NCBI GenBank assembly: GCA_963756875.1
Contig: CAVWPA010000003.1
Coordinates: forward strand, 704,001-768,000
DNA: 64,000 nt
Direction of reading: 5' to 3'
Origin: an uncultured Verrucomicrobiae bacterium
GTDB lineage: Bacteria; Verrucomicrobiota; Verrucomicrobiia; Chthoniobacterales; UBA10450
Shown: positions 43,530 through 64,000 of the stretch, one piece after another
Layout: each line of letters begins with the position of its first letter
Position numbering within the stretch: position 1 is the first letter of the stretch
Position numbers and translations under genes: made by a program
Notes under the pieces: generated by a model
The model's input: the letters and a program-made list of their open reading frames with translations, nothing else
Databases searched by the model: none
What the model was told of the DNA's origin: nothing

Positions 43530-44393
43530 TTAGCCGGGTGCGAAAACACGGAGCGAGCGCTGGCGAACACAAAACTCGACCGGACAATTGCCCATCAGTT
43601 CGCCATCGACTTCGACCGGCACTTTTTCGGCGCTTGTTACGCGCAGGCGCTGCGTTTGAAAATATTCGATCTCCGGCGTGTTAATCTCGGAGCTGAATAC
43701 CACATCCTGGAGATATTTGATGATCTCGAGATAACCGAGTCGCTTGAAAATGACGACGTCCAACAGACCATCGTCGATCACCGCGTGTTTGAAAAAAGGA
43801 AATGGCCCGCCGTACAAACGCCCGTTCCCGATCAAGACGAACGAACCTTCATTAATGGAGGCATTTTCCGATTCAATAAACAGTCGGGGTGGTTGACGCG
43901 CTGCGATCTGCGCCGCTGAAATCAGATAGCTGAGCGGCCCAAAATTTTCTCGCAACCGGGTGCTGGTTTCCTTGACGACCTGAGCGTCGAGACCCACTCC
44001 AGCCAGCTGAACAAAGTATTTCCGGTTTGCACTCGGAAGATCGACCAGGCGTGTGTTCTCGCCTTGAATGATGTTCCAACAAAGCTCGAGATTGTTGCCA
44101 GGCAGTCCGAGTTCCATGGCGAAGACGTTCATCGTGCCGATTGGCAGCAGCCCCAGCGTGGCATTGCTTCCAGCCAGGCCGTTGACCACTTCGTTCACTG
44201 TGCCGTCCCCCCCAGCTGCGACAATCCGCTGGACCCCTTCCCGCGCCGCCCGGCGTGCCAGGCCCTCGGCCTCACCGGACCGCGACGTGGAGCGAACAAC
44301 GGCGCCCTTGGCAAGCGATTCGACGCGTTCGCGTCTGCGCCGGGCGCGCTGGCCATGCGCGGCAGGATTAAGAATAACAAGCGTGCGAGTCAC
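43530..44393 (-). CDS. Soluble diacylglycerol/sphingosine kinase-family lipid kinase (YegS/BmrU-like)
   Basis: ILNPAA, AAGGDGTVNEVVNGL, LPIGTMNVFA, GVGLDA, YGG, VEVDGE. Confidence 0.92.
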   Translation of the reverse strand: MTRTLVILNPAAHGQRARRRRERVESLAKGAVVRSTSRSGEAEGLARRAAREGVQRIVAAGGDGTVNEVVNGLAGSNATLGLLPIGTMNVFAMELGLPGNNLELCWNIIQGENTRLVDLPSANRKYFVQLAGVGLDAQVVKETSTRLRENFGPLSYLISAAQIAARQPPRLFIESENASINEGSFVLIGNGRLYGGPFPFFKHAVIDDGLLDVVIFKRLGYLEIIKYLQDVVFSSEINTPEIEYFQTQRLRVTSAEKVPVEVDGELMGNCPVEFCVRQRSLRVFAPG

Positions 44394-49379: not shown

Positions 49380-49515
49380 AGCCAAAATGCGGTTTCAGCC
49401 GCCTTGGTAAATATTAGACAACTACGCGCGCGCGAAATCCTCCTTTTTCGCCATAACGCGCAGTCTACAGCGCATTTGTGGCGGAAATTGCGCAGAATCA
49501 CGAAATGTGAAAATT

Positions 49516-49539
49516 GGTTTCGAATCCCGTTAAAGGTCG
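49516..49539 (+). repeat. Partial direct repeat of the tRNA-Glu 3' end (att-like)
   Basis: ttcgaatcccgtta at 49519-49532 is identical to 48065-48078 and is followed closely by ggtcg in both copies. Confidence 0.5.
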
Positions 49540-49589
49540 ATTGGAATGGTGTTCTCTTCGTTTTTGTGGTAGGAAATACGCCCCCTCAA

Positions 49590-50618
49590 ATGCAGACGGC
49601 TTTCTTTCAATCTGGCCTTGAACATCCGCATGGCGGTCGCGCACGCGCCATCATCAAAACGCATCCGGAAGTCCGGGAATTGATGGTGCGCAATCCATAC
49701 ACGGCCCTGATCACGCTGTCACTCCTGGTCCTGCAAACAGCGATTGCATACGGGATGGGAAAACTCGGGTTCGGTTACTGGTGGCTCAGCTTGCTGGTGG
49801 CGTATTGCCTGGGCGCGTTCGCCAATCATGCCAACTACGTCATCATTCATGACGCGACGCATAATCTCATTTTGCGGAGCAAAAGCTGGAATAAAATGAT
49901 CGCGATTATCGCCGATCTTCCCAATTTAACGCCCGGTGCCATGGGCTTTCGGGTTTATCATTTAAAGCACCACTCGCATCAGGGTGATTACGAGCACGAT
50001 GCCGACCTGGCAAATCTCTGGGAGGCGCGTCTGGTGAGCAACATTTGGTATCGCAAGGCGCTCTGGTTGATGCTATTCCCGTTTTTCCAGTTGACGCGCC
50101 CTCCGCGTTTGAAGGCGATTACCATGTGGGACAGGTGGTTCGTCGTGAATTTCGTGTGCGTGGCCGCTTATGACACGGCTGTCGTTTATTTCTGCGGCTG
50201 GGCCGGGTTTTTTTATCTTGCGTTGTCGTTTCTTTTCTCGATCGGTCTGCATCCGGTAGGCGCGCGCTGGATCCAGGAGCATTACACGAACGATCCGGAG
50301 CAGGAGACCTACAGTTATTACGGACCAATCAATCGAGTTTGCCTCAACATGGGATACCACAACGAGCATCACGATTTGTCCTCGATTCCCTGGAATAATT
50401 TGCCGAAATTGCGGGCCATGGCGCCGGAGTTCTACGAGAATTTGAAATATCATCCGTCGTGGACCCGTTTGCTTTTTCAATTCATCTTCGACAAGCGCTA
50501 CAGTTTATTCTCGCGCATCGAACGAATGAAACAGCCCGCGCCCGAGGCGCAAGCCGCCCAATCGATTGTCGATCTTGGAGGCCATGAAGTTGTTAACGCG
50601 GAGGCAATCAATGCCTGA
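49590..50618 (+). CDS. Sphingolipid delta-4 desaturase/C4-hydroxylase-like (DEGS/DES family)
   Basis: N-terminal HPH..R..IIK.HPEVRELM; His boxes HDATH, HLKHH, HNEHHD; GLHPVG..IQEH; ETYSYYGP.N..N.GYHNEHHD..IPW..LP as in DEGS1. Confidence 0.85.
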   Translation: MQTAFFQSGLEHPHGGRARAIIKTHPEVRELMVRNPYTALITLSLLVLQTAIAYGMGKLGFGYWWLSLLVAYCLGAFANHANYVIIHDATHNLILRSKSWNKMIAIIADLPNLTPGAMGFRVYHLKHHSHQGDYEHDADLANLWEARLVSNIWYRKALWLMLFPFFQLTRPPRLKAITMWDRWFVVNFVCVAAYDTAVVYFCGWAGFFYLALSFLFSIGLHPVGARWIQEHYTNDPEQETYSYYGPINRVCLNMGYHNEHHDLSSIPWNNLPKLRAMAPEFYENLKYHPSWTRLLFQFIFDKRYSLFSRIERMKQPAPEAQAAQSIVDLGGHEVVNAEAINA

Positions 50619-51234
50619 ACCGGCGAAACGATTCTACGTTTCGAACAAGAACGAGAGCGTGCCGATGTTCGAAAGTAAGTTCATGGAGTTTTTTTCCCAC
50701 ATCCATCCGGCGACACCGGTGATTTTGTATGTGCCGGTGATCGTTTACCTGCTCTACCGCGCGCTCGCGCCGGGGCAAATGCCGATCCTGGCGGTGATGG
50801 TGCTTTTCCTGATTGGCGTCCTCATGTGGACGCTGTTGGAGTACATGGTCCACCGTTATGTTTTTCATTACGAACCGAAAAGCCGGCCGGGTAAGGCTTT
50901 GCACTTCATCATTCACGGCGTGCACCATGATTATCCGAACGATGCGAGCCGCCTTGTTTTGCCACCCGTGATTAGTGTCCCGATGGCGGTTCTATTTTAC
51001 TTCTTGTTTGCTTTCACTTTTGGGCAATTTGCCCCGGCCATTTCGGCTGGTTTTGGGACGGGCTACGTTTGCTACGACATGATTCACTACGCTACGCATC
51101 ATTTTCCGATGCGAAGCAGGGTCGGTCTTTGGCTCAAACAGTATCATCTGCGCCATCATTACAAAGACGACGAGGCCGGCTTCGGCGTTAGCTCTCCCCT
51201 GTGGGACTATATTTTTGGGACCACCCGAAAATAG
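50611..51234 (+). CDS. Fatty acid 2-hydroxylase-like (FA2H/Scs7 catalytic domain, no cytochrome b5 domain)
   Basis: WTLLEYMVHRYVFH, HFIIHGVHHDYPND..RLVLPP, GYVCYDMIHY..HH, YHLRHHY, FGVSSPLWD..FGT. Confidence 0.85.
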   Translation: MPEPAKRFYVSNKNESVPMFESKFMEFFSHIHPATPVILYVPVIVYLLYRALAPGQMPILAVMVLFLIGVLMWTLLEYMVHRYVFHYEPKSRPGKALHFIIHGVHHDYPNDASRLVLPPVISVPMAVLFYFLFAFTFGQFAPAISAGFGTGYVCYDMIHYATHHFPMRSRVGLWLKQYHLRHHYKDDEAGFGVSSPLWDYIFGTTRK

Positions 51235-51463: not shown

Positions 51464-52744
51464 ATGGATCAGGAAGGGGAATATCAACCGACGATGAGCC
51501 AGGACCCCTTCAAGCTTAGTCTCAGTAATTTCCTGGCCGCCGAGAGCAGCGATCCGCTGCAGGCTCCGCAAAGTTTCACAAATTGGGTGCGCGAGAGCGC
51601 GTGGGCCCGCGAATTGTACGAGCCCGAACTTCTTGGAACGGCGGACGCGCGCACGACGATCAATTACGATGGCAAGCCGGTCTCGGTTATCAATTTTTGT
51701 TCCTACAACTATCTTGGTCTGGCCAATCACCCGGAGGTTATTGCCGCCGCCCATCAGGCGCTCAGCACCCACGGCCTTGGCGCCTGCGGCGCGCCGATGC
51801 TCTCCGGCATGACCGATCTGCACCGGGAGCTGGAGCGGCGCGTTGCAAAATTTCTCGGGCGTGAAGACGCGATGCTTTTCAACAGCGGGTTCGGAGGGGC
51901 GCTCGGGACAATCTCTGGATTTCTTCGCAAGAGCGACGTCGCCATTCTCGACAATCGATCCCATCTCAGTCTCCGGGACGGCGCGATCCTGTCACGCTGT
52001 CGTACGGAAAAATTTGAACATAACGATCCAGAGTCGCTCGATACCGCGTTGAGCCGGCAACGCAATCGCCGTCAGCTTGTCGTCGTGGAAGGCATCTATT
52101 CCATGGATGGCGATTTCGGAAATCTGCAGGAATTGATCAGCGTCGCAGATTTGCACGGAGCCAGCGTTTTCGTCGACGAAGCGCACTCGATGTTGGGTTG
52201 TGGCGAAAACGGTCGGGGCGCGGCCGAAAAGTTCGGCGTGGAGCATCGGATTCCGCTCATCTACGGGACTTTTTCGAAGGCGTTTGGAGCCCTGGGTGGA
52301 TTCGTGGCCGGCTCGAAGGAGACTCTCCAATACCTGCGCTTTTACGCCCATCCCTACGTTTATTCTTGCGCCTTGCCCCCGGTGGTGGTGGCGGGAATTC
52401 TCAAAGCACTCGAGATCGGCATGCGGCAACCAGAGTTGCGAACACAACTTTGGGAGAATGCCGATTATTTTCATGCGCAACTTCGCGGTCTCGGCATCGA
52501 TACCGGGAAATCGACAACCTATATCATGCCGATCGTGATCGGGGAACGCGAGCGCATGTATCGCCTGGGCCATGAGCTGCGCCGGCGCGGTTTGTGGGTT
52601 GCACCGGTGGATTATCCGGCCGTGCCGTTGAATCGAGTCTGCTTCCGGGCCTGCGTTTCCGCCAAACACACGCGGGCTGACCTCGACGAAGCGCTCAATA
52701 TTCTCGAGGACACGCTGGTTCCGGCTGCGCTCCAAAGCGCCTGA
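51464..52744 (+). CDS. spt: Alpha-oxoamine synthase, probable serine palmitoyltransferase
   Basis: NFCSYNYLGL, VEGIYSMDGD, VDEAHS, GTFSKAFG (PLP Lys); specificity inferred from the neighbouring genes. Confidence 0.78.
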   Translation: MDQEGEYQPTMSQDPFKLSLSNFLAAESSDPLQAPQSFTNWVRESAWARELYEPELLGTADARTTINYDGKPVSVINFCSYNYLGLANHPEVIAAAHQALSTHGLGACGAPMLSGMTDLHRELERRVAKFLGREDAMLFNSGFGGALGTISGFLRKSDVAILDNRSHLSLRDGAILSRCRTEKFEHNDPESLDTALSRQRNRRQLVVVEGIYSMDGDFGNLQELISVADLHGASVFVDEAHSMLGCGENGRGAAEKFGVEHRIPLIYGTFSKAFGALGGFVAGSKETLQYLRFYAHPYVYSCALPPVVVAGILKALEIGMRQPELRTQLWENADYFHAQLRGLGIDTGKSTTYIMPIVIGERERMYRLGHELRRRGLWVAPVDYPAVPLNRVCFRACVSAKHTRADLDEALNILEDTLVPAALQSA

Positions 52745-52760: not shown

Positions 52761-53714
52761 ATGGTAATGCCGGAGCAGATTGATTTGCCGCTTTCTCCAT
52801 TGGAAGCGACCTACAAGACGCGTGACGTAGAGGGGATTGTCGATCTTTACTTTTATCGCAAGATCGCGTTCCGCCTGGCGCAGCTTTTCGCCAAACTGAA
52901 GATGACGCCGACGACGGTGACGCTTCTGGGCGGCGTTTTGGGCATCGCCGCCGGGCATTTGTATTTTTATCGCAATCTGCGCCTGAATGTTGTCGGGATG
53001 GTTCTACACATTTGCGCCAATGTGTTTGACAACGCCGATGGTCAGCTCGCGCGGCTGCTGAACCAAAAGAGCAGAACTGGTCGTGTAATCGATAGTCTGG
53101 TTGATCACGTAATATTCCTGAATATTTACGTCCATCTGATGCTGCGATGTTTGGTGGAAGGGGCATCTCTCACCGTCTGCCTGCTGGCCCTTGGCGCGGG
53201 AATCAGTCACGCATTGCAGGGCGCAGCCGCCGATTATTTCCGGAACGCCTATCTTTATTTTGTGAAAGGCCGATCCCGCGCGGATTGGGATTGCTCCGCC
53301 GTGTTGCGGAACGATTATCGCAGACTGAACTGGCGCACCGAGGGTTGGAACAAGTTTCTCCTTGCCACCTATCTGAATTTTACCCGACAACAGGAGCTGC
53401 TGTCGCCCAAGCTGAAACAATTGCGTGACGCGACAGTGCATGATTTTGCCGACGAGATTCCAGGTTCATTACGGGGCCATTATCGGGATATCGCTCGCCC
53501 GATGCTTCGAGGGTGGGGGTTGTTAATGACGAACACGCGCATGTTTTTTCTGTTCCTTTTCCTGGCCATCGACCGGCCCATCTGGTACTTTTGGCTCGAA
53601 GTCAGCGTTTTCAATCTTCTCCTGATTTACTTGATTTTCCGACAGGAAAAAATGGCGCGCGCCTTTCTTGAGCACCCTTATCGGGCGGCAGAAGTAACAA
53701 CAGGCGTGTCTTAA
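52761..53714 (+). CDS. CDP-alcohol phosphotransferase family protein 1
   Basis: DLYFYR..TPTTVT; signature DNADGQLAR..S..GRVIDSLVD. Confidence 0.9.
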   Translation: MVMPEQIDLPLSPLEATYKTRDVEGIVDLYFYRKIAFRLAQLFAKLKMTPTTVTLLGGVLGIAAGHLYFYRNLRLNVVGMVLHICANVFDNADGQLARLLNQKSRTGRVIDSLVDHVIFLNIYVHLMLRCLVEGASLTVCLLALGAGISHALQGAAADYFRNAYLYFVKGRSRADWDCSAVLRNDYRRLNWRTEGWNKFLLATYLNFTRQQELLSPKLKQLRDATVHDFADEIPGSLRGHYRDIARPMLRGWGLLMTNTRMFFLFLFLAIDRPIWYFWLEVSVFNLLLIYLIFRQEKMARAFLEHPYRAAEVTTGVS

Positions 53715-53718
53715 TTCC

Positions 53719-54846
53719 GTGGCGGAAATTGAAATCTCGCAAGTCAGCTCGCATCGTGACCGCGATGCCTTCATTAAGTTTCCCTGGCGCATCTACCGGA
53801 ATGATCCGGCCTGGGTCCCACCGTTAATTATTGAGCGGAAGGCGTTCCTCGACCGGACGAAGCATCCGTTTTACAAACATGGCGACGCCGCCCTGTTTCT
53901 GGCGAAGCGCAGCGGCGAAATCGTCGGTCGAATCATGGCCAGCGACGATCCGCGTTACAACGCGCTCCACGAAACGAACGTTGGCTGTTTCGGTCTCTTC
54001 GAGTGCATCGACAGTCGCGAGGTCGCGGCCGCCTTGTTCGCGGCCGCGGGTGATTGGCTGCGCGCCCGGGGACGCAGCGAGATGATGGGACCGATCGATT
54101 ACTCGACCAATTATGTTTGCGGGTTACTCATCGACGGATTTCAATATCCGCCCACGATCCTTACCTCACACAATCCGCCCTATTACGCTGGCTTGATCGA
54201 AGGCTGCGGCTTTACGAAAGCCAAAGATTGGTACGCCTGGTGGTTTTCGGAGTTTCCCGCTCCGGCGGAACGGTTGCGGAAGATTGCCGTTGCGCGGGCG
54301 GGAAAAATCGGGGTCAAGATTCGACCGATCAAGGTGAGAAAGATCGAAGACGAAGGCCAACGCATCCGGACGGTTTACAATCAGGCTTGGCAGAAGAATT
54401 GGGGGTTTGTCCCCTTTACAGAAGCTGAATCCGAACACATGGCGAAGGAAATGAAGCCGCTGATTCATCCCAAGGGAACATTGATCGCGGAGATCGGCGA
54501 TGAACCCGTCGGCTTTGTTATCGGTGTGCCGGACATCAACGTCGCATTTCGCCGTATCGATGGTCGACTGACTTGGTTTGGTTTGCCGATTGGCTTGATT
54601 AAGCTGCTTTACTACAGATTGAAAATCCGCACCGGCCGGCTCATTGCGCTTGGTGTTGTGGAAAAGTACCGCCGAGCGGGCATCGCCGAAATGCTTGTCC
54701 TTGCTTTGATGGATGCATCGTTCAAACGCGGGTTTACTGGCGAGTTAAGCATGACGCTCGAAGACAATGTCATGGTCAATCGCTTCATCGAAGCAATGGG
54801 CGCGTCGCGATACAAAACGTATCGAATCTACAGCCGCGCTCTGTGA
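53719..54846 (+). CDS. GNAT-fold protein, probable bacterial ceramide synthase (bCerS/YghO-like)
   Basis: FIKFPW.IY.NDP.WVPPL..HPF..VGRI..FGLFEC..GP..STN..GLLIDGF..HNPPYY..N.AW..NWGFVP..PDIN..LGV..YR..G. Confidence 0.75.
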   Translation: MAEIEISQVSSHRDRDAFIKFPWRIYRNDPAWVPPLIIERKAFLDRTKHPFYKHGDAALFLAKRSGEIVGRIMASDDPRYNALHETNVGCFGLFECIDSREVAAALFAAAGDWLRARGRSEMMGPIDYSTNYVCGLLIDGFQYPPTILTSHNPPYYAGLIEGCGFTKAKDWYAWWFSEFPAPAERLRKIAVARAGKIGVKIRPIKVRKIEDEGQRIRTVYNQAWQKNWGFVPFTEAESEHMAKEMKPLIHPKGTLIAEIGDEPVGFVIGVPDINVAFRRIDGRLTWFGLPIGLIKLLYYRLKIRTGRLIALGVVEKYRRAGIAEMLVLALMDASFKRGFTGELSMTLEDNVMVNRFIEAMGASRYKTYRIYSRAL

Positions 54847-56060
54847 TCAGAGAAACTTCTGCGTTTGTTATCCTGGCTGATGAATCGGCCGACTGGAAAA
54901 TTGCAGGCCTGCGCCAACTGGAACGGCTGGTTCTTGCCATTAATGAATTGCGCGACTCCAGCTCGACGGAAGCGCAGCTCGACATTGTTGTCTTTTGGAA
55001 ACCAGAGATTCCGTCTTCAAAGCGCTGGTTGCCGCGAAGCACGGCGGGTATTCGCCTTTTTGACAATAACAAGCGACAGCCTGATTTCGGTGCGCGTATT
55101 TTATCGACGCGATTGCTAGTTGGCCGCGCTGCTCTCCCGGAGTTCATCGCCAATGTGCCCTGTGTTGGAGCCGTAGCGCCAACCATGGATGAATGCCGGC
55201 TTTGGAAGGAGTCCTGGCATGACTTCGAAGTCGCTTGTCAGCGAGCTCTGACCGGGAAGAAGGTTTCACCAGCCTGGCAATACCTCAATGCTTCGGACGA
55301 AATTCCACGGTCGGAGAAAGCATTTCTCCGTCGAGTTGGAAAACCGCAGGATGGAATTGTCTCGCGTTTCATTAATCGACCGATCTCCCGAACGATCACG
55401 CGCGTTTTACTTCGTTCCCAAATAACTCCGGCTGCGTGGACAATATCGATGCTGGTCGTGCCGGTTGCTGCCTTCTTCGTGCTGCGTCGCGGAGATTACT
55501 TCGCTTTCGTAATCGGTCTCGCCATTTTTCAGTTATACAGCGTTCTGGACGGTTGCGATGGCGAAATTGCGCGGGCCAAGTATTTGGAATCGGAGAAAGG
55601 CGGAAGACTCGATACCTGGACGGATATTTTTGGTGGATTCATTTTCATCTTTGGCCTTGGATATGGCCTGTATCGGAAGCATTCCGGCGCCGCGAACGCC
55701 TGGCATTATGTCACACAAGCGATTGCCTGCGTGCTGCTTATCGGAATCAATGAGTGGCGGTTGCGGGGCCGGAGGAGCGAACGAAATGCTCCGCCGGATG
55801 ATTTGATTCCGACTTTATATCCGCGACATAAGGAGCTGATTCATCATTCGGGAATTCTGTTGCTGGGCGAGAGACTTGTGTGGTGGTTGGTTCAGTTTAC
55901 GAAGAGAGACATCTCCATTTTTGTCTTTTTTCTTCTGGCGATCGTTTCCCGTCCGGAATGGATCCTTCCGCTATGGATCGCCGTGACCGCCGTAGTATTG
56001 GTGCTGGCCGAGATCGCGCGGTGGAAACGTGCGCATTCGTCATTGGGTGGACCCCGATGA
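54843..56060 (+). CDS. CDP-alcohol phosphotransferase 2 (DIPPS-like) with a divergent N-terminal domain
   Basis: K..DGIVSRFINRPISR..Q..SVLDGCDGEIARAK..S..GG.LD...D. Confidence 0.85.
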   Translation: MIRETSAFVILADESADWKIAGLRQLERLVLAINELRDSSSTEAQLDIVVFWKPEIPSSKRWLPRSTAGIRLFDNNKRQPDFGARILSTRLLVGRAALPEFIANVPCVGAVAPTMDECRLWKESWHDFEVACQRALTGKKVSPAWQYLNASDEIPRSEKAFLRRVGKPQDGIVSRFINRPISRTITRVLLRSQITPAAWTISMLVVPVAAFFVLRRGDYFAFVIGLAIFQLYSVLDGCDGEIARAKYLESEKGGRLDTWTDIFGGFIFIFGLGYGLYRKHSGAANAWHYVTQAIACVLLIGINEWRLRGRRSERNAPPDDLIPTLYPRHKELIHHSGILLLGERLVWWLVQFTKRDISIFVFFLLAIVSRPEWILPLWIAVTAVVLVLAEIARWKRAHSSLGGPR

Positions 56061-56123
56061 GTAGATTCGGCGTTGGACGGGGGCAGCGTGGCTTGCTACT
56101 ATTCTGACCTTCGTTGTTAGCCT

Positions 56124-57074
56124 ATGGAGTCCACCTTGGCTCAAGATATTGCGCCCGTCTCCCGGCCGATTGGGCCCGGTCTGTCTTTCCGTCTCCGCTA
56201 CAGTCCTTTTTTAGCACAGATGGTGGTGATCCGGCGTTGCAATCTCTCCTGTGGATATTGCTCTGAGTACGACAAATCGAGCGATCCGGTGCCGATCGGA
56301 TTGCTGGAAACCCGGCTGCGCAAGTTGAAGGAACTCGGCACATTCGGCATTTCACTCACTGGTGGCGAACCGACACTGCACCCGGAACTGCCTCGTCTCA
56401 TTCGCATGTGCCGGACCCTGCGTTTCTTTCGCACCGGTATGATTTCAAACGGTTTCTTTTTGCGCCCGGAAATGATTGAAACGCTGAACCAGGCCGGGCT
56501 CCAGGAAATGCAGATTTCGATTGATGGTGTGCATGGCAATGACACAACGCAGAAAGTTCTGAACAACCTCAAGAAACGCCTTCGCTGGCTGCGGGAGCAT
56601 GCCCGTTTTCAAGTTTTCGTTAGCGCGGTCATCGGCGCGTGCCCGCCGGAAGAAGCGGAGGAGGTCGTCTCGTTTGCGACCGAGATGGGCTTCGCCTGGC
56701 GTGTTCTTCTTGTGCATGACGAACATGGTCAGCTCAAACTGAAGAGTGACGAGGTGAAAGCCTTCCGGAGCATCGTGAAAAAACTTCCGAAAAGTTTGAG
56801 GGAGCTTTCCGACTATCGTGAGCGCCTGATCCGTGACGGCACGGCGCCATACAAGTGTCGGGCCGGGAGCCGATATCTTTACATCGATGAATTCGGTAAC
56901 GTGAATTGGTGCTCACAAACCCGTCGCGTTTGGTCCAAGCCCTTGATGGATTATGGGCTGAACGATCTGCGGGAACAGTTCTATCGCTACAAATCCTGTC
57001 ACGCGACCTGCACTCTGGGATGCGTGCGGTCTGCCAGCCAATTGGACAACTGGCGCAAACAATCCGCCGCCTAG
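56124..57074 (+). CDS. Radical SAM protein with SPASM/twitch-like C-terminal cysteines
   Basis: CNLSCGYC, TGGEP, ISNG, ISIDG; C.AG..YLYID..G.V..C..CHATCTLGC. Confidence 0.92.
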   Translation: MESTLAQDIAPVSRPIGPGLSFRLRYSPFLAQMVVIRRCNLSCGYCSEYDKSSDPVPIGLLETRLRKLKELGTFGISLTGGEPTLHPELPRLIRMCRTLRFFRTGMISNGFFLRPEMIETLNQAGLQEMQISIDGVHGNDTTQKVLNNLKKRLRWLREHARFQVFVSAVIGACPPEEAEEVVSFATEMGFAWRVLLVHDEHGQLKLKSDEVKAFRSIVKKLPKSLRELSDYRERLIRDGTAPYKCRAGSRYLYIDEFGNVNWCSQTRRVWSKPLMDYGLNDLREQFYRYKSCHATCTLGCVRSASQLDNWRKQSAA

Positions 57075-57087
57075 CCGAAAATATTTC

Positions 57088-57867
57088 TTATCGCCGTTCG
57101 GGCAGCGCCTGGGCCCGCGTCTGCAACACCCTGGCCGCTTGCTGGAGCATCTGCGGAGTGTCGACGTCCTGCCACCAAGCATCGCCGATATCCGTGGCGC
57201 GGACCTTTCCGTCGGCAGCCATCAAGCGGACACCGTCAGCCAGGCTGCAATCTCCATTGCTCTTGGCGCGTGCGAGATAATCGAAGATCTGGGCGGGGCA
57301 GACGAACAACCCGGTGTCGATTCCATCGTAATGTCGTAGTTCTTTTCCAATAGCGACAATGCGTTCGCCGCGGGTCTGGACTTTCATCGCATCCGCCAGA
57401 TCGAAAATAGAATCGATTTTTCGGTCGACTGCCAGATTGAGCTGGTCGAGATCGGGACTTTTCAGGAGAAGGTCGATGACGGTCTGGTCAAACAAATGGT
57501 CGCTCATGGTCAAAAGAAACGGAGGTTTGACGTGATGAGCGGCGGCAAGAACCGAGATGCCATTCTGTTTTTGCCACTCGCTATTCTTGATAAAACGCAC
57601 TTCCAGTGCGGGCGGTGCCAATCGACTTACCGCAGCGCTCAAACGTTCGGCCTCAAATCCTACCACGGCATTGATTCTCTTGATTCCGGCCCGGGCCAGG
57701 GCGTCGATCGTGTAGGAAATGAGCGGTCGGCCAAGCAGTGGAACCAACGGCTTCGGGAAGGTCGGATCCGCGCCGCGCAACCGGGAACCGGATCCAGCCA
57801 TCAAAATCACTGCCTCAGTAACCAGCCTCCGTTCGAGCGAAGCGGCCGATCCTGGAAGGCTTGTCAT
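57088..57867 (-). CDS. NTP transferase resembling inositol-1-phosphate cytidylyltransferase (IPCT/LicC-like)
   Basis: AVILMAG.GSRL..PKPL, NGISVL, LLTMSDH, K....IGKEL..YD.IDTGLF, W.DVDT. Confidence 0.82.
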   Translation of the reverse strand: MTSLPGSAASLERRLVTEAVILMAGSGSRLRGADPTFPKPLVPLLGRPLISYTIDALARAGIKRINAVVGFEAERLSAAVSRLAPPALEVRFIKNSEWQKQNGISVLAAAHHVKPPFLLTMSDHLFDQTVIDLLLKSPDLDQLNLAVDRKIDSIFDLADAMKVQTRGERIVAIGKELRHYDGIDTGLFVCPAQIFDYLARAKSNGDCSLADGVRLMAADGKVRATDIGDAWWQDVDTPQMLQQAARVLQTRAQALPERR

Positions 57868-58667
57868 ATTCCGTAATACCGCTTCAGGCCCCAAAGGCGA
57901 ACGCGCTGGGGAAGAAATCGAAAGATGAGCGGCGCAATTTTGGATTGAAACGTGTCGCCTACGGTGATGCGCGGGGGTGGATTTGCTGCGTCGATCAACT
58001 TCAGAACATTCTTTGCGACCAGTTCCGGTTCCGGGGCCGCCTTCATGTTGCGATCTACGACGGTCCAGGTCCTAACCACTTTCGCTTCATAGCGCGGATT
58101 GGATTGCGCACTCTTGCTGACTGCATCGTTGAAGGCGGTGCAAATATCGCCGGGCTGGAGATCGACAATGCGCACTCTCGAATCGCCCAGTTCGAGCTGC
58201 ATAGACATGGTGAAGGCTGCCATCGCTGCCTTGGCGGCGTTGTAGGCCGCCATGAATGGAACGGGCAAACGCGAAGCCAGAGACGTCACGTTGACGATGA
58301 GGCCTTCCCCTCGCGCTTGCATCGCGTTGAGGGCCAGACGCATCAACTGCAGGTGTCCGAACACGAGCACCTGAAATTCGCGCGCCGTTTCCTTCGCAGA
58401 AAGATCTTCCGCCGGCCCGAAGTGACCGCTGCCGGCATTGTTGATAACAACATCAAAATGACCGGCTTCCGAAAGCGCGGTTGTAAACGCCTCGTCGATT
58501 GAATGGGAGTCGGACAGATCGAGCCGTACCGCGTGCAAGCGTGGCAGTTGCGGGACGCGACCAGGTTCTCGCGAGGTCCCCCAGATCTCATCTCCACGGT
58601 TGACAAGCGCTTGGGCAATGGCCAGGCCGATTCCGGAACTGGCGCCTGTGAGAAAAATGGGTTTCAT
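57864..58667 (-). CDS. Classical short-chain dehydrogenase/reductase
   Basis: TGASSGIG, INNAG, NVTS, YNAAK. Confidence 0.92.
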   Translation of the reverse strand: MKPIFLTGASSGIGLAIAQALVNRGDEIWGTSREPGRVPQLPRLHAVRLDLSDSHSIDEAFTTALSEAGHFDVVINNAGSGHFGPAEDLSAKETAREFQVLVFGHLQLMRLALNAMQARGEGLIVNVTSLASRLPVPFMAAYNAAKAAMAAFTMSMQLELGDSRVRIVDLQPGDICTAFNDAVSKSAQSNPRYEAKVVRTWTVVDRNMKAAPEPELVAKNVLKLIDAANPPPRITVGDTFQSKIAPLIFRFLPQRVRLWGLKRYYGI

Positions 58668-60229
58668 GAATGACGTTGGATTAAAAACAGCTGCAGAAAA
58701 TGGTGCTTGCTGTGGACGATTACCGAGCGGTCAAATTCGGCCAATGGTACCCGCTGCCAGCCTGCGGGTAACGGCAGATGCGCATCATCGGTATAAACGG
58801 CGACTGAGTTTTCAAGAGCTTGCGGCAAATCGCCCGGAGGCGGCACATCGCGAAACGTTTTGAATTCGGGTGCATACCACTCGGCATGTGGTACGGCATG
58901 GAGAAAGAGCAGCGCCACATTTTTGCGTTGTGAGGGTGGATAGAGCTGCATGAGATAGTGGACCATCCGTGCCGATGGCGGTTGTTCGCGATGGTTTTGG
59001 ATTACGTTTGGGATTGCGATATAAAGGAGCAAAATGGGAAGGGCCAGCGCCGTCCAATTCCACGGGGTGCGCATTTGCAGAAAGCCTCGCAGTATCGCCA
59101 CTAAAAGGAGAGGAAAAATAAGTATGTAGTACCGAGCAGTGCCACCGAGACAGACAAAAATGATCGCAATGTAGATCAGCGCCCACGGCGCGTGAAATTT
59201 CCAGAAAAGCCGGTCTTGCAGATCCCGGGGCCCGAGGATGTAGGCAGCGAATCCCCCGACGATCATCGCGATTCCAATTGCCAGTGTGACCGGCGATTGC
59301 AGAAATCCGAAACCGAGTCCGAACCAGCCGAGAAGGAAGTGTTCGGCGAAACGCGTCGCCAAATAATGAGCGCTCCAATTTCCCGCCCCGATGAAGGTAT
59401 GCGGCTTGTCCAGGCGCCACTGCCATTGGCCGTAGACAAGTTTTGGATAAACAAGCCACGCGGGAACATCAGGTCGCAAACGCGCCTGCAAATACCACAT
59501 CGGCAACAGCCACACTAGGCAGCTCGCGATCAAAACGCCCACGGCCAGGATAGATATCTTCCAGCGAGCATGTCCCATCTTTAACGCCGCGATGAGAATG
59601 ACGATGACAATCAGAATCAATTGAGGTCGCGCGCCGCTAGCAGCGGCTCCGCATAAGGACGCGCCCAACAAAGCGGCCACACTCCGGCGCTGCCAAAAAC
59701 AAATTGCCGCGAAAATCTCCAAACTCAGGAATCCTGCCGCGAGACTATCTGTCATAATTTTCGTCGCCGTCAGCCAAACGGCAGGCATAACCGAGAGGCA
59801 CGCAGCTATCCACCACGCCAAGCGCTCGTTGAGCTGAGATCGGATGATAAGAAACCATGCCGCAATGAAAAGTGCGCCGCCCACACACGACACGAGATGC
59901 AAAGAAGTTTGAGGACTGAGTCCCAAGCCCCTGGTGCCAATCCAGCCGAAGAAAATAAAAAGCGGATACCCCGGTGGATGCGGTTGATTGTTCCAGAGAT
60001 TAAATGCGCGAACACCCATGGCGAAGTTTACGGAATCGAATTCGTCAAGGCCGGCAGAACGTGTCAGCAGGTAAACTACGAACATCACCACAAAGATGGC
60101 GGCGGCTTTGACCGCCGTTTCGTAATCAACCCGGTTTGCGGCAAGCGCGCCGTTCCCTGCTTGAGATTTGTGAAGAATTCGCTGGCCCATCTTCCCACCG
60201 AATCTTCTCGATGCGAGCCGATTCGACAA
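58664..60229 (-). CDS. Polytopic membrane protein, GT-C (ArnT/PMT/DUF2723-like) glycosyltransferase candidate
   Basis: First loop LDEFDSVNFA..PHPPGYPLF, many TM segments, GARPQ; the start codon is uncertain. Confidence 0.65.
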   Translation of the reverse strand: MSNRLASRRFGGKMGQRILHKSQAGNGALAANRVDYETAVKAAAIFVVMFVVYLLTRSAGLDEFDSVNFAMGVRAFNLWNNQPHPPGYPLFIFFGWIGTRGLGLSPQTSLHLVSCVGGALFIAAWFLIIRSQLNERLAWWIAACLSVMPAVWLTATKIMTDSLAAGFLSLEIFAAICFWQRRSVAALLGASLCGAAASGARPQLILIVIVILIAALKMGHARWKISILAVGVLIASCLVWLLPMWYLQARLRPDVPAWLVYPKLVYGQWQWRLDKPHTFIGAGNWSAHYLATRFAEHFLLGWFGLGFGFLQSPVTLAIGIAMIVGGFAAYILGPRDLQDRLFWKFHAPWALIYIAIIFVCLGGTARYYILIFPLLLVAILRGFLQMRTPWNWTALALPILLLYIAIPNVIQNHREQPPSARMVHYLMQLYPPSQRKNVALLFLHAVPHAEWYAPEFKTFRDVPPPGDLPQALENSVAVYTDDAHLPLPAGWQRVPLAEFDRSVIVHSKHHFLQLFLIQRHS

Positions 60230-60280: not shown

Positions 60281-61654
60281 TTGATTGCGAGTTTACGCCG
60301 CTGGGCCAGTCTTACTCTTAGCCGTGGTTCGCCCCGAGATGGTCGCGAGCGGCGGTCGCGCGGTGTTTTTCGGGTAATGCGTCCGCTTTGGTCGGCCGGC
60401 TTCTGGCGATTCTTGTCACCATCGTCTCGGTCCCGCTCACGGTTGGATATCTGGGGAGTGAACGCTACGGCGCATGGGTGACGATTGTAAGCGTTCTCAC
60501 ATTTCTGAGTATTACCGATGCGGGTCTGGCTGCCAGTCTTACAAACGCGCTGGCCAAGGCTCAAGCCGAAGACGCGCGCGATGTCGGCCAGCGTTACGTT
60601 TCGTCCGCTTTCTTTACATTGTCGTTAATTGCGGTGGTCATTCTCATTTTCGGCAATGCACTCGCGCCGCAGATTTCGGCATTTTTGTTTCCAAGTCTGC
60701 AATCCCCAGCCGCGCGCCCTGAAATCGTTACCGCAGTAAGGGCCGCGCTGTCGATCTTCGCGCTGAATCTTCCGTTTCTGGTCAATGCTCGTGTGCTGGC
60801 CGCGCATCAAGAAAGCGCACTGGCCAACCTTTGGAACGTAGCAGGAACCGTCGGCAATCTCGGCGCTATCTCGCTGTTATCTGGTTTCGAGGCAGCCTTC
60901 CATGGCTTATCTTGGGCTGCTTCGGCTTCGGATTGCTGACGAACATCATTTGCGCCATCTGGTTGTTCGGGTTTCACAAGCCGTGGCTGCGGCCGGGGGC
61001 TGCCGGCGTCGCGCCGGCCTTTATCAAATCCCTTCTTTCCGATGGTTGGAAATTTTTCGTAATCGGCATCGGCTGGATGATCAACTGGCAAACGGACAAC
61101 GTGGTCATCGCGCACTTTCTGGACGTGGCGCAGGTGACCCCATATGCTGTCACGTTCAGCCTCTTTGCGCTGGCAACCGGGTTGCAAGCGCTTGCCTATC
61201 AATCGCTTTGGCCGGCTTACACCGAGGCATTCGCGCAACGCGACTACGCTTGGATCCGCCAGACCTTGCGCTCGAATTTCAAATTCAGCTTCATTACCAC
61301 GATTGCAATTCTCGGCACGCTTACGATTTTTGGCAGCGACATCATCCGGCTCTGGGCGGGCCCGATCGCAGTGCCACCATTTTCAGTGATTGTCTGGATG
61401 GCCGTCTGGCGGCTGATGTTATCGACGCTCATGGTCGGGGTTGCCTTCTCAATGCGACCGGACATCTGAAAGGCATGACGATTTACGGCAGTGTCACCGC
61501 AGTCTTAAACCTCATCTTATCGATCTTACTGGCCAAGAGGTACGGCATTACTGGTGTCATCGCCGGGACAGCCATCGCCTACGCCGTCGCCAGCTACATC
61601 CCAACGTTTTTGGAAGTGAGAAGCGTGCTGCGAAAGTGTTGTCCCTCTGAATGA
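60281..61654 (+). CDS. Wzx-like oligosaccharide flippase; three apparent frameshifts (about 60374, 60870, 61440)
   Basis: VPLTVGYLGSERYGAW..DAGL..LTN; QTDNVVIAHFL..VTPY; LWPAY.EA; NLILSILL..YGITG across successive frames. Confidence 0.8.
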
Positions 61655-62860
61655 ATGTCATTATTGACGTTACCAGCTCGTGCCGGTCTGTCCAAAGCAC
61701 CGGCGTTCAGAGGATGACGCGCAAAATTTTCGCGGAGCTTTCGCAACGTCTGCCGGTTACACCGATTTGCTGGAGCGAGATCGGCAGATTTTATCAAAGG
61801 CTCGGCCCCGTCGAGCACAAGCTATTGACCCGTCCTTTTGATGTACGTTCGCGACCGACGACGCGCCCGGAGATTCGCGGTCAAAAATCCGATTGCGGAA
61901 CTCCGGAGGCTCATGTTTCTGCGTCGATTCGATCTGGCGAATTCGCTTACAGAAAACGATGTTTTTATCCTGCCGGATGGTCACCACGATTTGCGGGGTA
62001 GATATCTGCCGCACCTTATCAAAAGAGGGCGAGGCCGATCGTTGGCAATTTTCCACGATGCTGCCAGGTTGCGTCTTGCTTCTCTTTACCGGATTCGCAG
62101 TCGACGTTACCTGGAATACGTCAAATCTCTTTCTGCGTTTGATCTTGTAATCTGCGTTTCCCAGGAGGCACACGATGACCTGCAGGATTTCTGGAGGCAT
62201 CTCGGCTGCAAGGCAACATCGACATGCGTTGAACCTTGGCCCGCTCAGTTGGAAAATGGCGCGTCCGGGGAGAGCCACGATGCCGCAACCAATCTTGTTA
62301 TTTGTGTCAGCTCCCTGGATCCGCGGAAAAATCATTTAGCGCTTCTGGCTGCGGCGGAAAGATTGTGGAGGGAAGGACTCAACTTCGAGCTGCACATAAT
62401 CGGCAGAGGCACGAAATTCCTGGGACTAGGAGTGGTATCGAAAATACGGAAGCTGCGGAGAGACAGCCGGCCGATTCAATGGTTGCGGCATGTCGATGAC
62501 AAGACATTGCAGCGCGAGTATAACCGCTGCCGATTCACCGTTTATCCGTCGTTAATGGAAGGTTACGGCCTGCCCATCGTGGAAAGTTTGTTACATGGGA
62601 AGCCTTGCGTTTGCGGCGACAACGGCGCTCTTGGAGAAGTCGCCCACGGCGGCGGATGTCTGATCGTCGATCAAACGAGCGTGGAGTCGCTAGCCGGCGG
62701 AATCAAAAAATTGCTGCAAGATCGAGAATTGTATATGCAGCTGTGCGCTGAATCGCGTGCGCGAAAGTTCCGTTCCTGGTCAGATTATGTCGATCGTTTC
62801 CTGCGCTATTTGCAAACGACCTCTCCCGCGCCTGCCATTCCTGGCGTTCCGTCACACTGA
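61651..62860 (+). CDS. GT4 glycosyltransferase; frameshift near 61885
   Basis: [38 protein letters not shown]. Confidence 0.85.
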
Positions 62861-63566: not shown

Positions 63567-64000
63567 ACGCTCGATCCGCGCAAGGTTGCGACAGGTGGGA
63601 ATTCAGCCGCGCGCCGGGCGGGCACGTAGCTGGCGATGAATACGGCGACGAATCGCGAGCAATGTTGCCCAGACGATAATGCCGCCAATCCCAAATCACC
63701 AAAAAGTGATTGGCATAGATCAACCCGCGAATCCGGATGGGAATCTGCGAAACGCCGCCACGTCATGAGTCGCGCCGAGCAAACAGCCAATCACGGAACC
63801 GGCGACGGCGATGAGCGCGCCCTGCCAGAGGAAAATCGCGCTGATATCGATTCGCCGATACCCCATTGAACGCAAAATTGCGATCTCCCGTAACCTTCGC
63901 CAGGACGACATGGTGAGGACATTGAAAATGCCGAACCCGGCGAGCAAAATGATGAGTGAGACGGTGATGGCGGCGGAAATTCGCAGTGTGAAAAAGATCT
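63563..64000 (-). CDS. LolC/E/FtsX-type ABC permease, C-terminal part; heavily frameshifted
   Basis: LAGFGIFNVLTM..REIAILRSMGY..I..IFLWQG; IASYVPARRAA...PVATLRG. Confidence 0.8.

Follow-up and report, generated by a model that had tools for sequence, protein, structure and literature searches.

The radical SAM gene at 56124..57074 (+ strand) of the window, the whole 64,000-nucleotide stretch of DNA analysed here from an uncultured Verrucomicrobiae bacterium, encodes an enzyme that we believe tailors the phospho-inositol head group of inositol-phosphoceramide (probability roughly 0.55). Its relatives in four phyla go with inositol-phosphate head-group genes more than with ceramide genes, and the enzyme therefore likely remodels the inositol ring. 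The inositol head group is fairly likely to be the substrate. The exact reaction is assigned only tentatively as an epimerisation overall, in which the most likely outcome would be a single inverted hydroxyl and hence a non-myo cyclitol. Head-group tailoring of inositol lipids is the probable role; a function confined to sphingolipids, or one on the lipid chains, is less probable. The gene and its motifs are genuine, the family is uncharacterised and unnamed, and the open-access literature searched showed no description of it.

The open reading frame is intact, starts with ATG and encodes 316 aa. The CxxxCxxC motif of the SAM-binding [4Fe-4S] cluster (C39, C43 and C46; 56238..56261, + strand) was invariant in 57/57 representatives obtained by 70% clustering of 293 full-length sequences, and the other Cys residues are at positions 96, 173, 245, 263, 292, 296 and 300. 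This is the sole CxxxCxxC frame longer than 200 aa within the window, and the gene is present in a single copy in the genome. Pfam matches were limited to Radical_SAM (69.3 bits, cut-off 29.5) and Fer4_12, and no B12-binding or SPASM family was matched. The CxxxCxxC and GGE motifs, a partial TIM barrel and a PF04055 score above the cut-off place the protein in the radical SAM superfamily. Five C-terminal Cys were found, as against the seven-Cys motif for two auxiliary clusters of the SPASM subclass, and PF13186 gave no match. The core begins at residue 30-33 of 316, with no cobalamin-binding Pfam match, unlike the B12-dependent class. The frame, the Pfam search and the Cys map confirmed what the sequence-only reading had described, namely CxxxCxxC, five C-terminal Cys and no cobalamin-binding domain.

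Among the best 25 of the 51 NCBIfam families matched by the protein, none exceeded its cut-off. The top match was Tes (GDGT-MAS, NF045702; 65.7 bits against 450), whose N-terminal zinc ribbon PF23545 is absent here; MoaA (TIGR02666; 60.1 against 284), viperin (NF038283; 49.6 against 180) and BlsE (TIGR04466; 45.3 against 400) scored lower. HpnH (TIGR03470, cut-off 225) lay outside the best 25 matches of the query, and an acidobacterial member reached 50.5 bits against it. In the ESM Atlas the matches were radical SAM clusters with generic names only, and a 79% identical homologue (P0107) bears the source label Verrucomicrobiota. These searches, together with the gene company described below, upheld the earlier view of an unassigned Twitch-type enzyme tied to lipid biosynthesis. 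Comparison with the orthologue in genome G170 gave dN 0.045 and dS 0.59 over 316 codons; the gene is under purifying selection. A scan for promoters and terminators found no signal exceeding that of shuffled sequences, nor any promoter-like site ahead of the gene. The protein is soluble and has no hydrophobic stretch, its most hydrophobic 19-residue window scoring 0.95.

An AlphaFold2 model from a 27-sequence alignment (mean pLDDT 89) has a core of six strands and, towards the C terminus, a sheet of three strands with helices after it. The C-terminal strands (251-254, 259-261 and 271-273) come after C245 and around C263, and the helices are followed by C292, C296 and C300. An antiparallel sheet flanked by Cys, then helices, then further Cys is the Twitch layout as defined in the accessible part of PMC6231123, and the protein is predicted from the model to belong to that subclass. 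The Twitch-like domain spans 56856..57023 (+), with the spacing C245-x17-C263-x28-C292-x3-C296-x3-C300. C292 and C296 were conserved in 57/57 representatives and C245 and C263 in 56/57; position 300 was Cys in 53/57 and Tyr in 4/57. Four of these Cys would, by prediction, ligate an auxiliary cluster, leaving C300 as a candidate hydrogen-atom donor. Tyr replaces C300 in a clade fused to GT2 domains (P0141 and P0150). Other fusions join the family to a methyltransferase-containing protein (P0124) and to a DedA/VTT domain (P0138), and each of the four is one metagenomic protein.

The closest folds were BlsE (Z 21.0, rmsd 3.3, 274 residues aligned), SkfB (20.6), SuiB (19.2), MoaA (18.6) and viperin (18.1). 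None of them exceeds 24% identity, so none of the solved enzymes appears to be an orthologue. BlsE (PDB 7VOB) is also the best sequence match (E 1.5e-11) and of similar size, but identity to it is 19%, its family model scores far below cut-off and no blasticidin-type context occurs here. SkfB (PDB 6EFN) has five C-terminal Cys with the same first spacing. However, the last Cys are arranged as Cx3Cx3C here and as Cx4CxC in SkfB, and the present enzyme has no N-terminal peptide-recognition domain and was seen in no precursor-peptide or RiPP context. The conserved residues of the clade to which the query belongs (R193, R232, R246, R250, K290, R302, R311, Q130 and H198, clade-A type) are basic or polar, and a phosphorylated polyol therefore fits better than an acyl chain.

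In the window the gene is the last of a + strand series. A sphingolipid delta4-desaturase-type gene (49404..50618; PF00487 and PF08557), whose true start is probably near 49580-49590 (the orthologue aligns from 49578), and an FA2H-type fatty acid hydroxylase gene (50566..51234; PF04116) come first. They are followed by an alpha-oxoamine synthase gene (51464..52744; PF00155) which from its context would be a serine palmitoyltransferase (spt-like). Its protein scored 259-316 bits with SPT models and 341 bits with BioF, all below cut-off, and two more paralogues lie elsewhere in the genome. Next comes CDP-alcohol phosphotransferase 1 (CDP-AP1, 52761..53714; PF01066), whose top NCBIfam matches, AIP and PIP synthases, were below cut-off and which would put inositol phosphate on a lipid. 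The GNAT acyltransferase gene at 53719..54846 (PF00583) has relatives (37-39%) in alphaproteobacterial spt loci; from this context we take it to be a bacterial ceramide synthase (CerS-like). CDP-AP2 (54843..56060; PF01066) resembles DIPP synthase and AF2299 (NF041135, 79.7 bits, below cut-off; PDB 4o6m, E 2e-17, and 4mnd, E 6e-15, covering AF2299 and IPCT/DIPPS). The gaps from spt-like to CDP-AP1, CDP-AP1 to CerS-like and CerS-like to CDP-AP2 are 16, 4 and -4 bp, and 63 bp separate CDP-AP2 from the radical SAM gene; in this genome the two are likely partners.

The radical SAM gene converges on a nucleotidyltransferase gene on the - strand (57088..57894). The encoded protein matched IPCT best (PDB 2xme, E 7e-24), followed by the IPCT/DIPPS structures 4mnd and 4jd0, and phosphocholine cytidylyltransferase (1jyk) only at E 1e-6; it would make CDP-inositol. 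Likeness to IPCT is no proof of this, because Caulobacter CpgD has IMPCT as its top structural match yet activates phosphoglycerate (accessible text of PMC12275187). Beyond it on the same strand are a 3-ketodihydrosphingosine-reductase-like (KdsR-like) SDR gene (57864..58667; NF049977, 163.9 bits, cut-off 400) and a PMT_2-type GT-C membrane glycosyltransferase gene (58664..60229; PF13231), whose product may extend the head group. The inositol-3-phosphate synthase gene (INO1; G000:C3:772922-774022) lies 12 kb past the radical SAM gene, just beyond the window, after an exporter operon. Relative to the orthologous locus of G170 (L003; window 52761-57894), dS was 0.5-0.7 for CDP-AP2, the radical SAM gene and the IPCT-like gene and 1.5 or saturated for spt, CDP-AP1 and the CerS-like gene, as if the former block had been exchanged more recently.

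Relatives were surveyed in 150 genomes of the same family, including the unpublished G152, G163 and G282, without which the counts shift by one or two. Seventy-three carried the radical SAM family, and a class-wide sample added one carrier in 150 other genomes, itself a member of the same family. Three clades were distinguished: clade A, 66-91% identical to the query, and clades B and C at 26-34%; a tree made by a quick method, with several long branches, set clade A far from B and C. Forty stretches, chosen mainly for long contigs, were compared, with neighbours labelled by direct BLAST. The tightest neighbour was a CDP-alcohol phosphotransferase of DIPPS/AF2299 type (c1; CDP-AP2 in the present genome and G170), found within 900 bp of 21/22 clade A, within 500 bp of 8/10 clade B and within 1 kb of 15/17 clade C genes. 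The 20 clade A loci also held CerS-like (18), IPCT-like (18) and spt (13) genes, and the expected co-occurrence with IPCT-like and CDP-alcohol phosphotransferase genes was thus found. Among these close orthologues the connection with sphingolipid genes is therefore upheld. The placing of the gene at the end of an spt operon, as first read, held for the present genome and G170, but in 18/20 clade A loci it is head-to-head with c1. A tandem duplication of the clade A gene was seen in G240 (L042:6399-8282).

As shown by the tally over the 150 genomes, c1 occurred in 65/73 carriers and 16/77 non-carriers (both genes in 65, radical SAM only in 8, c1 only in 16, neither in 61). The present genome (completeness 87.6%) has no c1; five of the eight c1-less carriers were inspected (G164, G170, G224, G248 and G263) and had the CDP-AP2 type in the locus. 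The CerS-like gene was present in 134/150 genomes and INO1 in 138/150, including 71/73 carriers. Since these two are near-universal and c1 tracks the carriers, the radical SAM step appears optional and dependent on the second CDP-alcohol phosphotransferase, not the reverse. The near-universality of INO1 within this family counts against the main reading. Seven loci (L024, L028, L030, L031, L033, L040 and L137) had the radical SAM/c1 pair with no sphingolipid biosynthesis gene in the stretch compared. A complex prediction for a clade A enzyme and its c1 partner scored 0.00, giving no verdict either way.

Outside the family, the best 80 of at least 598 GTDB loci were compared, and 69 of them were labelled Acidobacteriota. 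None of the 69 had INO1, IPCT-like or CDP-alcohol phosphotransferase genes in the flanks examined, where the neighbours were housekeeping genes. These bare flanks are the main contrary result for a simple operon argument. The refuting condition named beforehand, that homologues mostly occur in unrelated contexts, thus held in part: it applies to these acidobacterial neighbourhoods, although most of the genomes make inositol. INO1 was present in 41/45 carriers among those loci, and a CerS-like gene in only 4/45. In an even sample of 201 Acidobacteriota genomes, which includes the unpublished non-carrier G374, INO1 was found in 58/60 carriers against 62/141 non-carriers. Twenty further acidobacterial loci were hand-picked, two of them because INO1 lay near, and showed linkage in only three: INO1 and a PIP-synthase-type CDP-alcohol phosphotransferase within 4 kb in L168 and L169, and an adjoining CDP-alcohol phosphotransferase in L183. 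A PAP2 gene occurred in two of the 20 and a Tes-like gene in three. Tes-like radical SAM genes (zinc ribbon and core) near the family or INO1 were located at L168:11884-14130, L175:1208-3589, L186:10892-13027 and L150:3-1757; the one in L186 scored 311 against a cut-off of 450. Their placing hints at a link to brGDGT head groups. The betaproteobacteria-labelled proteins of L091 and L109 nest in the acidobacterial clade and likely come from mislabelled or mis-binned contigs.

In Myxococcota 27/251 genomes carried the family. INO1 was found in 26/27 carriers against 31/53 non-carriers tested (of 224), and five carriers had it within 10 kb. Two acidobacterial carriers and one myxococcal carrier had no INO1. 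INO1 was searched with PF01658 because a single-protein query had missed a divergent type in G302; G298 and G299 stood outside this re-test. The counts are given without p-values, and genome tallies overstate the association because kin are not independent. The 20 loci compared, of 36 myxococcal places, held CDP-alcohol phosphotransferase (12; absent from the other 8), MMPL exporter (9), IPCT-like (6), GT4 (5) and INO1 (3) genes and no spt or CerS gene, and in L195, L200 and L202 INO1, IPCT-like and CDP-alcohol phosphotransferase genes were clustered with the family. A CerS-like gene was absent from 5/10 tested carriers, three of which had a 46-50% identical enzyme clustered with c1. In L043 (Polyangiales) a PLP decarboxylase-family gene (L043:1241-3301), possibly sphingosine-1-phosphate-lyase-like, adjoins CDP-alcohol phosphotransferase, MMPL and radical SAM genes.

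Among Alphaproteobacteria the family lay beside spt, IPCT-like, CDP-alcohol phosphotransferase, LptFG, GT4, PIG-L or INO1 genes in L061, L098, L100 and L105 and alone in L119; L098 and L105 are from Nitrospirillum, a cultured plant-associated carrier. A universal partnership with c1 was dropped as an idea, c1 being present, weakly, in one of five alphaproteobacterial carriers. The common denominator over the four phyla is inositol phosphate and a CDP-alcohol phosphotransferase, not ceramide. The family tracks inositol rather than ceramide, because INO1 occurs in 58/60 and 26/27 carriers and the CerS-like gene in 4/45 acidobacterial ones. The specifically sphingolipid role first proposed was therefore not supported, as the CerS-like gene is missing from most acidobacterial and half of the tested myxococcal carriers; the head-group hypothesis offered alongside it is favoured.

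It was also proposed that the enzyme modifies or cross-links lipid chains, as Tes or Mss do. Tes is the top, if weak, NCBIfam match, and Tes-like genes lie near the family in L168, L175 and L186. According to the part of PMC13159169 available, iso-diabolic acid is made by Acidobacteria in which no mss homologue was detected, and the family occurs in 60/201 Acidobacteriota genomes. The Tes score is however far below cut-off and the zinc ribbon is missing, though seen in the Tes-like neighbours. The protein has 316 aa compared with 526 aa for the solved Tes chain, no hydrophobic stretch and polar conserved residues, and its gene partners are head-group enzymes. Chain cross-linking is unlikely, and action on the chains of any such kind improbable. 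Only a slight chance was given to a soluble inositol-derived metabolite as substrate, a di-inositol-phosphate-type solute or other, or to part of the family having no connection with the lipid pathway. In favour of this, DIPP synthase, which the partner resembles, makes a solute, the acidobacterial clade is an orphan and the enzyme itself is soluble. On the other side, lipid exporters and flippases (Wzx-type, MMPL in 9/20 myxococcal loci, LptFG, the DedA fusion P0138) and spt and CerS-like genes surround the radical SAM gene.

For the tailoring of an inositol lipid, the following pathway may be proposed. Inositol-3-phosphate synthase would provide inositol phosphate, the IPCT-like enzyme would activate it to CDP-inositol, and CDP-AP1 and the DIPP-synthase-like CDP-AP2 would assemble a head group of one or two inositol-phosphate units on ceramide. 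The radical SAM enzyme would then be an optional tailoring step, in which the 5'-deoxyadenosyl radical would take the hydrogen of a ring C-H, four C-terminal Cys would hold one auxiliary cluster, and the fifth (C300) would return a hydrogen on the opposite face. A lipid-bound phosphodiester or inositol phosphate is a likelier substrate than CDP-inositol, because 0/5 acidobacterial carriers had an IPCT-like match (a single query without positive control); CDP-inositol as a universal substrate was set aside on the same result.

The enzyme shares the radical SAM core and one Twitch auxiliary-cluster domain with BtrN (2-deoxy-scyllo-inosamine dehydrogenase, PDB 4M7T), NeoN, HygY and SpeY, and probably a cyclitol substrate as well (Z 14.1 to BtrN, with a marginal E of 0.021, and 13.4 to SpeY). 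NeoN, HygY and SpeY are further Twitch enzymes of cyclitols or aminoglycosides, NeoN and HygY being of the epimerase type. These enzymes serve antibiotic pathways, not membrane lipids, and have four C-terminal Cys where the present enzyme has five. In NeoN, Cys249 is the hydrogen donor (accessible part of PMC10991966), and by analogy four ligands plus a spare donor would make a NeoN-like epimerase. SkfB also has five C-terminal Cys but makes thioethers and is no epimerase, as far as PMC6231123 was available. In favour of epimerisation, the family has no reductase or aminotransferase as a regular companion from phylum to phylum. Two paralogues with unlike pocket residues share one cluster in Verrucomicrobiota (L014, L018 and L020) and in Myxococcota (L188, L195 and L203), which points to a single kind of chemistry carried out at two positions or on two inositols.

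The same substrate could instead be oxidised to an inosose, as by BtrN, or its 1,2-diol dehydrated to give a deoxy-inosose; a reductase or aminotransferase not dedicated to the pathway would then complete the reaction. We consider this rather unlikely. BtrN is a Twitch dehydrogenase whose auxiliary cluster is fully ligated (PMC6231123, in the text available). Genes for an aldo-keto reductase and a class III aminotransferase adjoin some clade C loci, and one for an aldo-keto reductase adjoins L119. BlsE, the top fold match, and viperin (Z 18.1) both act on sugar or nucleotide diols. Yet less than 2 Z separates BlsE, SkfB and SuiB, and function cannot be read from fold. The locus has a single SDR, the KdsR-like one, which is present too where the radical SAM gene is missing. 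In the present genome an aminotransferase of 80% identity, with a more distant aldo-keto reductase nearby, sits far from the locus, so the clade C flanks look like an insertion site. The aminotransferase, aldo-keto reductase and transaldolase genes beside clade C were accordingly judged to be insertion-site genes and not pathway genes.

Genes for sugar transfer bear on a further alternative, in which a sugar attached to the inositol lipid is the substrate; glucosamine or glucose might, for example, have its ring contracted, the reaction proposed for HpnJ and calditol synthase. The radical SAM gene follows GT4 and PIG-L-like de-N-acetylase genes in L098, L105 and L061 and is beside PIG-L in L009, L023, L025 and L026. 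It is fused to GT2 in P0141 and P0150, and GT4 occurs in the five myxococcal loci noted above. Cds and HpnJ are proposed head-group ring contractases and, likened here by description, are radical SAM enzymes remodelling a lipid head-group ring (PMC13459092, accessible text). They differ in that their proposed substrates in that text are glucose or glucosamine on GDGT or hopanoid, and no such model was among the best 25 NCBIfam matches. PIG-L is moreover no constant neighbour and is on another contig in the present genome. In Acidocella the GT4 and PIG-L genes are found with spt and the radical SAM gene at another place, and the constant neighbour is a CDP-alcohol phosphotransferase. Action on an added sugar is thus quite unlikely, and tailoring of the inositol itself is preferred.

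Known inositol-lipid and ceramide systems share parts of this logic. A putative and unconfirmed inositol-lipid cluster of Bacteroides vulgatus and Prevotella (MIPS, NTP transferase, CDP-alcohol phosphotransferase and HAD genes; PMC9246714, as far as available) follows the same CDP-inositol logic, and HAD genes flank several relatives here too. The present locus adds ceramide genes, and 'radical SAM' does not occur in the main text of PMC9246714. Caulobacter crescentus CpgA-D likewise has a cytidylyltransferase in a ceramide pathway and a tandem anionic head group, but uses phosphoglycerate, not inositol, and the accessible text of PMC12275187 has no radical SAM step. A 2026 review (PMC13459092) covers the lipid-modifying radical SAM enzymes Tes, Mss, Gms, GrsAB, Gmm, Cds, HpnH/J/P/R, Jaw5 and the ladderane enzymes; the word 'ceramide' is absent from its text, and the passages found in it treat no inositol substrate. 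Lipid chemistry would gain a new reaction if the inositol ring of a membrane lipid is remodelled here. The synthesis of inositol phospholipids and sphingolipids would then include a radical step in roughly half of the present family's genomes and 30% of the sampled Acidobacteriota, and would produce head groups that mass alone cannot separate from myo-inositol. Envelope properties and resistance to inositol-specific phospholipases might be affected. It is possible, as a more tentative generalisation, that a widespread radical SAM family rewrites inositol stereochemistry or the ring in the phospholipids and sphingolipids of bacteria, each member of a paralogue pair working at its own ring position. 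Non-myo-inositol membrane lipids would then occur in Verrucomicrobiota, Acidobacteriota, Myxococcota and some Alphaproteobacteria, as lipids that are isobaric with the ordinary ones and invisible to routine lipidomics.

Several other genes were observed in the present genome. A DAGK/YegS-type lipid kinase gene (window 43530-44393, - strand), which could be a ceramide or sphingosine kinase, lies 5 kb upstream of the sphingolipid genes. Downstream, a flippase-like gene extends over several frames (60388-61654, + strand), a GT4 gene over two (61651-62860, + strand) and an FtsX-type permease gene over three (63569-63998, - strand). These breaks are likely assembly indels, as several relatives show similar ones, and pseudogenes are possible. 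On another contig (L142:6769-9722; G000:C1) are a GT-C glycosyltransferase gene and a PIG-L-like de-N-acetylase gene, which flank the radical SAM gene in some relatives; together with PIG-V-like and GT9 genes of relatives, this pair suggests a GPI/GIPC-like glycolipid.
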